Below are positions 11,021 to 11,384 of a stretch of DNA of 64,000 nucleotides, piece by piece. Source of the DNA: Escherichia coli. GTDB lineage: Bacteria > Pseudomonadota > Gammaproteobacteria > Enterobacterales > Enterobacteriaceae. How positions within the stretch are numbered: the first letter of the stretch is position 1; every line of letters starts with the position of its first letter. The translations under genes were made by a program, and so were the position numbers. Location of the stretch: NCBI RefSeq assembly GCF_041248615.1, contig NZ_CP158426.1; one strand, given 5' to 3'. The notes below the pieces were generated by a model that saw only the letters and a list, made by a program, of their open reading frames with translations, had not been told where the DNA came from and searched no databases.

Positions 11021-11031
11021 ACACCACCAAT

Positions 11032-11061
11032 GGCTGGCCTGGAGAAATCGCCAGGCCAGCC
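11032..11061. terminator. strong hairpin just downstream of dcp (11-bp perfect stem GGCTGGCCTGG/CCAGGCCAGCC)
   Basis: read directly; no clear T-tract on either side, so it may be a stabiliser or bidirectional terminator. Confidence 0.4.
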
Positions 11062-11064
11062 TGG

Positions 11065-11147
11065 TTAGAGCAGTAATTGCAGCAGCTGGGCGAGGGCAAA
11101 CCTCACCGCTAATGCTAATACCGTTTCGCAGTCGCCAGCAAAATTAC
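11065..11147 (-). pseudogene. possible 3' remnant of ydeJ (CinA/PncC-like C-terminus ...FAGDCETVLALAVRFALAQLLQLLL-stop)
   Basis: minus-strand reading frame ends in a CinA-like C-terminal pattern; no room for a full ydeJ between dcp and ydeI; speculative. Confidence 0.2.
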
Positions 11148-11384
11148 TTTTTTTGTATACCCTTCCGTTATAATAATTTTCAAATTTATAAATCTGATTG
11201 TTCTGAAATATGTTTAAGACTCTTTAATCTTCTTCTTACTTTAGTGAGTAAAATTCTCTGAATATTTGACAGCTAGTTGCCTGATTTTAAATGCCTTATA
11301 ACAATTGGCAGTATTCTTATTTGTCAATTATAAAAATAGCAACCAGACTTAATAAGTCAAACCAAACGCAATTAAGGAGTCAGT

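Follow-up and report, generated by a model that had tools for sequence, protein, structure and literature searches.

The window (the whole 64,000-nt stretch of Escherichia coli DNA that was analysed) carries dcp and ydeI next to each other. According to the list of open reading frames (ORFs) and the sequence itself, the last base of dcp is 11020 and the first of ydeI is 11385, and the spacer between them, 11021-11384, is therefore 364 bp long. A 1-kb query over the spacer matches E. coli NRZ14408 (chromosome NZ_LT599825.1) with 100% identity, and from this record the RefSeq annotation was transferred (window coordinate = NZ_LT599825.1 locus coordinate + 8199). The features at the locus are as follows.

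8975..11020, plus strand: dcp (peptidyl-dipeptidase Dcp), intact, from the ORF and RefSeq annotation; its stop codon bounds the spacer on the left.
11026..11065, no strand assigned: G+C-rich hairpin lying where the 3' ends of dcp and the ydeJ remnant converge, from RNA folding.
11065..11145, minus strand: 3' remnant of ydeJ (rdsA), from translation, tblastn and a PGAP partial pseudogene at the same coordinates.
Between 11144 and 11145, no strand assigned: deletion junction, from alignment to K-12 and anchor arithmetic.
11146..11384, no strand assigned: former ydeJ-ydeI divergent control region, now the ydeI upstream region, A+T-rich; aligns with 3417-3655 of the K-12 locus (L002).
11385..11777, plus strand: ydeI (YdeI family stress-tolerance OB-fold protein), intact, an ORF of 130 codons; right border of the spacer.

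The gene order in NZ_LT599825.1 is ydfG, dcp, partial pseudogene, ydeI, dgcZ, mgtT, mgtS, ydeE, and synteny between the window genome and K-12 is identical (ydfG-dcp-(ydeJ)-ydeI-dgcZ-mgtT/mgtS-ydeE). In K-12 DH10B the dcp–ydeI spacer is 837 bp long and contains ydeJ (519 nt, 172 codons), which is convergent with dcp and divergent from ydeI. The preliminary description had given the gap in the window as 364 bp, which is exact, and had placed a CinA/PncC-like ydeJ of about 170 codons here in K-12, with the gene apparently missing from the window. This is borne out by the DH10B annotation, by the length of K-12 YdeJ (172 aa) and its profile matches to the CinA/PncC family (Pfam PF02464, TIGR00199), and by alignment to K-12, which shows that a 475-bp block including the first 146 codons is absent. 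Of the flanking genes, dcp is identical to K-12 at 2003 of 2046 nt (97.9%) and ydeI at 388 of 393 nt (98.7%), and the ydeI product has the same accession, WP_000671737.1, in the window-type record and in K-12 DH10B.

The minus strand at 11145..11065 encodes NFAGDCETVLALAVRFALAQLLQLLL, followed by a stop codon, while K-12 YdeJ terminates in ...MHFAGDCETVLALAVRFALAQLLQLLL and its own stop. The remnant thus comprises the last 25 ydeJ codons and the stop, preceded by a junction codon, which is AAT (Asn) in the window and CAT (His) in K-12. The 25 residues are identical to residues 148-172 of K-12 YdeJ (25/25). When K-12 YdeJ was run in tblastn against the 64-kb window without masking, residues 147-172 aligned with 11145..11068 (25/26 identical, E = 2e-10), and no other match in the window was better than E = 3.6. 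Default masking hides the Leu-rich tail, so that the match shrinks to 8 residues with E = 1.3. Given this sensitivity to masking, the DNA alignment to K-12 (about 78 of 80 nt identical, counted by reading the alignment) and the synteny are the firmer evidence. Both of the nucleotide differences visible in that alignment are synonymous.

The same 81 nt are annotated by RefSeq/PGAP in NZ_LT599825.1 as the pseudogene R2K29_RS12935 ('incomplete; partial in the middle of a contig; missing N-terminus'), and equivalent RefSeq pseudogenes occur in other genomes (e.g. GUK18_RS23850, BW707_RS27260). The remnant has the same site and orientation as K-12 ydeJ (b1537; WP_001024746.1; UniProt P31131) and the same last 25 amino acids. 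However, K-12 has the whole 172-codon gene, whereas the window keeps the last 26 codon positions and the stop, and has no start codon. From the sequence, a CinA-like C-terminal pattern had been noticed on the minus strand and proposed as a 3' remnant, with tblastn and a synteny comparison among E. coli genomes suggested as checks. The peptide is as quoted there, and both checks agree with the proposal: the similarity to YdeJ is significant, and the gene order is the same in the window genome and in K-12, the ydeJ block being present in some E. coli genomes and deleted in others.

In the frame of the remnant, no ATG, GTG or TTG start would give 20 aa or more, and there is an in-frame stop upstream. 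The remnant has neither a start codon nor a ribosome-binding site, and is therefore a pseudogene fragment. The 26-aa peptide by itself has no Pfam match; with 26 of 172 codon positions left and no intact ORF, it does not qualify as a functional CinA/YdeJ member, and it is unable to make a CinA-domain protein. That the window remnant still has all 25 amino acids of K-12, with synonymous differences only, is compatible with chance over so short a stretch. In the remnants of three other deletion genomes, substitutions have altered amino acids (V to A, L to F, R to K and A to T), which fits DNA that has ceased to code. The ydeJ remnant is ordinary gene decay, already annotated in RefSeq.

A three-way alignment shows that what is missing from the window is one clean block of 475 bp, corresponding to 2942-3416 of the K-12 locus (L002). 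It takes in the 36 bp that precede the GTG start of ydeJ, codons 1-146, and 1 nt of codon 147. Shared anchors lie 500 nt apart in K-12 and 25 nt apart in the window. At the junction the two K-12 flanks are joined cleanly with a microhomology of 1 nt, a single T that can be assigned to either flank, and the junction sequence is identical in the window and in strains Trh52 (L003), XH992 (L004) and CT282 (L006). In the K-12 sequence no direct repeats with a spacing of about 475 bp flank the endpoints, and recombination between repeats is accordingly unsupported as a route to the deletion. Neither an IS element, a terminal inverted repeat nor a target-site duplication is found at the junction, which is not what an IS- or transposon-mediated deletion would leave. 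In view of the absence of both suitably spaced repeats and an IS scar, the mechanism that we infer for the event is illegitimate recombination or replication slippage.

On the basis of these observations, the spacer almost certainly holds a dead 3' fragment of ydeJ, left by one ancient 475-bp deletion. The endpoints of this deletion share essentially no homology (1 nt), and it took away codons 1-146 together with the start codon and the ribosome-binding region. What survives is the final 25 codons with their stop, the hairpin that the remnant shares with the dcp 3' end, and some 240 bp of the former divergent ydeJ/ydeI control region, which still precedes an intact ydeI.

The hairpin and the control region have been analysed further. 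The preliminary description had mentioned a hairpin close to dcp, and it is real: it occupies 11026-11065, with a core (11032-11061) formed by the stem 11032-11042 / 11051-11061. It has a predicted folding energy of -28.8 kcal/mol (z = -6.07), and none of 200 shuffled sequences was as stable. It is kept in all three allele forms, the stem being conserved and the loop variable in K-12 and Trh52. The G+C-rich stem-loop resembles that of a Rho-independent terminator, but there is no T-run after the stem, nor indeed next to the hairpin on either side, and a consensus scan of 10950-11450 on both strands called no intrinsic-terminator-like site. The control region, 11146-11384 (239 bp), is identical to K-12 in 218 of 241 alignment columns (90.5%, with 3 gap columns), and has therefore diverged more than dcp (97.9%) or ydeI (98.7%). 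As a separate observation, ydeJ-intact genomes match the window spacer over 11060-11384 at only 92-94%. RcdA is reported to bind the ydeI-ydeJ spacer of K-12 (PMC3535384). A 9-mer resembling an RcdA box, with 1 mismatch, is present at 11153, and there is one in K-12 at a non-equivalent position, which is weak evidence.

It could be supposed that the orphaned ydeJ promoter still makes a short non-coding transcript running to the hairpin, or that the remnant aids formation of the dcp 3' end. Either would be compatible with the deletion, in which no more than 36 bp ahead of the start codon were lost and some 240 bp of the former divergent control region stayed in place. This region has two sigma-70-like matches on the minus strand, at 11360..11333 and 11311..11284, both pointing towards the remnant, and the strong hairpin lies just downstream. 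However, the promoter-like matches occur at the rate of shuffled sequence (2 sites against 1.3 +/- 1.0 expected) and are thus not enriched, the hairpin is without a T-run, and Rfam 15 covariance models run over 10900-11500 on both strands gave no match at E <= 1. The promoter of the Salmonella ydeJ is active and responds to supercoiling (PMC7387798), which speaks for a surviving promoter. Against it, the sequence of the remnant drifts freely in other lineages, and B2 strains have also lost most of the spacer, from window 11187 on. An active remnant is therefore considered improbable.

The opposite direction of change, with the short spacer as the original state and a 475-bp insertion bringing ydeJ into K-12-type genomes, is very improbable. 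The junction alone gives no direction, the endpoints being free of repeats and mobile-element scars, and the deletion allele is found in B2 strains, a lineage often placed close to the base of E. coli. Nevertheless, the match of K-12 YdeJ to Pfam CinA (PF02464; residues 19-171, profile positions 3-155 of 155, 162 bits) is continuous over the junction as far as residue 171, and inserted DNA would need to have arrived in frame beside a perfect CinA C-terminus that was already there. Because the CinA domain of K-12 YdeJ spans the junction, the retained residues were once part of a complete domain, which argues for a deletion and not for an insertion in K-12. Salmonella also has ydeJ, as STM14_1830 (PMC7387798; PMC3855486), which is likewise at odds with a gain in K-12 and indicates, on the basis of the literature, that presence is the ancestral state.

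The frequency of the deletion was obtained from 5426 complete E. coli genomes, of which 5417 match the locus at all. The deleted 475-bp ydeJ block is present in 3618/5426 of them. A 60-nt probe centred on the junction, run in blastn mode, found the junction contiguous in 1799/5426 (about one third). The exact 60-mer of the window is common to 151 genomes, and megablast with the same probe found only these 151; this is an undercount, since the T/A-rich centre is masked and an exact 28-mer seed is needed in the left half. The counts of junction and block (1799 + 3618) add up to 5417, which is every genome matching the locus. They are thus complementary, which makes this a two-allele polymorphism, and nothing in them points to deletion genomes having another copy of ydeJ at a different site. 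That the short spacer is an assembly or sequencing artefact of one genome is refuted by the presence of the same contiguous junction in 1799 independently assembled complete genomes, and has practically no chance of being right.

The gene is intact in K-12, BL21, O157:H7, O104:H4 and O111 strains. The window-type allele (ydeJ lost, ydeI whole) is carried by roughly 700-750 genomes, estimated as the 4371 or 4318 genomes that have the ydeI 5' region minus the 3618 or 3607 that have the ydeJ block; its phylogroup, by elimination, is probably D, F or G. The deletion would have a single origin, as suggested by the identical junctions in four genomes and the complementary counts, and may have arisen in the ancestor of phylogroup B2 and related non-A/B1/E lineages. 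No paper was found noting the absence of ydeJ from B2 or related E. coli lineages, and the pseudogene is routinely annotated.

Decay at the locus has gone further in some of these genomes. About 1046-1131 of the ydeJ-deletion genomes have a second, nested deletion of 504 bp, corresponding to window 11187-11690. Codons 1-102 of ydeI are lost with it, as is most of the sequence upstream of the gene, and a 90-nt 3' pseudogene remains. In Trh52 (NZ_CP047600.1) the junction of this deletion reads TTTTCAAATT joined to CAGCCGGACC, with a 2-nt TT microhomology. Its carriers include UTI89, S88, APEC O1, IHE3034, UM146, NU14, NC101, E2348/69 and the type strain ATCC 11775, which we take to be phylogroup B2. 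Every B2 strain seen (UTI89, S88, APEC O1, E2348/69, NC101 and ATCC 11775) has the ydeJ deletion.

A different arrangement is found in strain CE20 (NZ_CM188248.1; 3006-4471 of locus L005), where an IS5 adjoins a ydeJ that has no N-terminus, and ydeI is wholly absent. This loss is independent of the 475-bp deletion, and the genome has a K-12-type ydeJ 3' end. With multiple decay events, including the IS5-associated loss in CE20, the locus is evidently dispensable.

The product of the lost gene is a single-domain paralogue of CinA/PncC. PncC (YgaD) is an active single-domain NMN deamidase of the CinA family (PF02464), to which full-length YdeJ also belongs, whereas E. coli YdeJ is reported to be catalytically inactive as an NMN deamidase, with the changes Y58F and N60D (PMC3855486); the 26-aa remnant has no family match. 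K-12 YdeJ scores 327.7 bits against the NCBIfam YdeJ equivalog NF002972, and 145.6 bits against the PncC equivalog NF002975, below the cut-off of 212 bits.

A role has been described in Salmonella, where YdeJ has been renamed RdsA, for regulator of DNA supercoiling: the ydeJ promoter becomes less active as negative supercoiling rises, and in a ydeJ deletion mutant the DNA is more supercoiled (PMC7387798). The RdsA of Salmonella Typhimurium (STM14_1830) is the named orthologue of the gene deleted in the window, a likeness drawn from the literature. Unlike Salmonella RdsA, the only functional result shown for E. coli YdeJ is its lack of NMN deamidase activity (PMC3855486).

By itself the loss of ydeJ carries little weight, being textbook lineage-specific gene loss that is flagged in the reference annotation. 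Wider relevance comes only via RdsA, since in Salmonella the gene feeds back on DNA supercoiling. Carriers of the deletion would be natural ydeJ nulls. Large and medically important lineages are naturally without the gene, namely the B2 extraintestinal pathogens and the carbapenem- and colistin-resistant isolate from which the window comes, and B2 strains also have a truncated stress gene ydeI. It may be speculated that the third of E. coli that would be ydeJ/rdsA nulls, B2 included, have an altered or compensated supercoiling set-point, and that in window-type genomes the orphan promoter may drive a transcript; we consider this combined proposal unlikely. A supercoiling phenotype of rdsA nulls, or transcription of the remnant from the orphan promoter, would be mildly interesting readings, for which the evidence is circumstantial. 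The deletion strains are ready-made natural knockouts for the study of YdeJ/RdsA or YdeI.

It is worth adding that the product name given to YdeJ by PGAP/NCBIfam NF002972 is '2-oxo-tetronate isomerase' (window 11065-11145; K-12 locus L002, 2862-3380). In the literature that enzyme, EC 5.3.1.35, is the product of b2739 (OtnI), which is hydroxypyruvate-isomerase-like (PMC12506659), whereas YdeJ is of the CinA/PncC family. Its use for YdeJ therefore looks like a mistaken product name, by now propagated to thousands of genomes.

Some minor differences were noted beyond ydeI. In dgcZ (window 12032-12943) the K-12 stop codon TAA is changed to TCA, making DgcZ 7 residues longer (303 aa, compared with 296 aa in both K-12 and Trh52), with the C-terminus …NVINRVSAPFNIH followed by a stop. 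As in K-12, the minus strand carries two small-protein genes, mgtT (13037-13141) and mgtS (13141-13236), between dgcZ and ydeE; the annotation of Trh52 marks mgtT as frameshifted.
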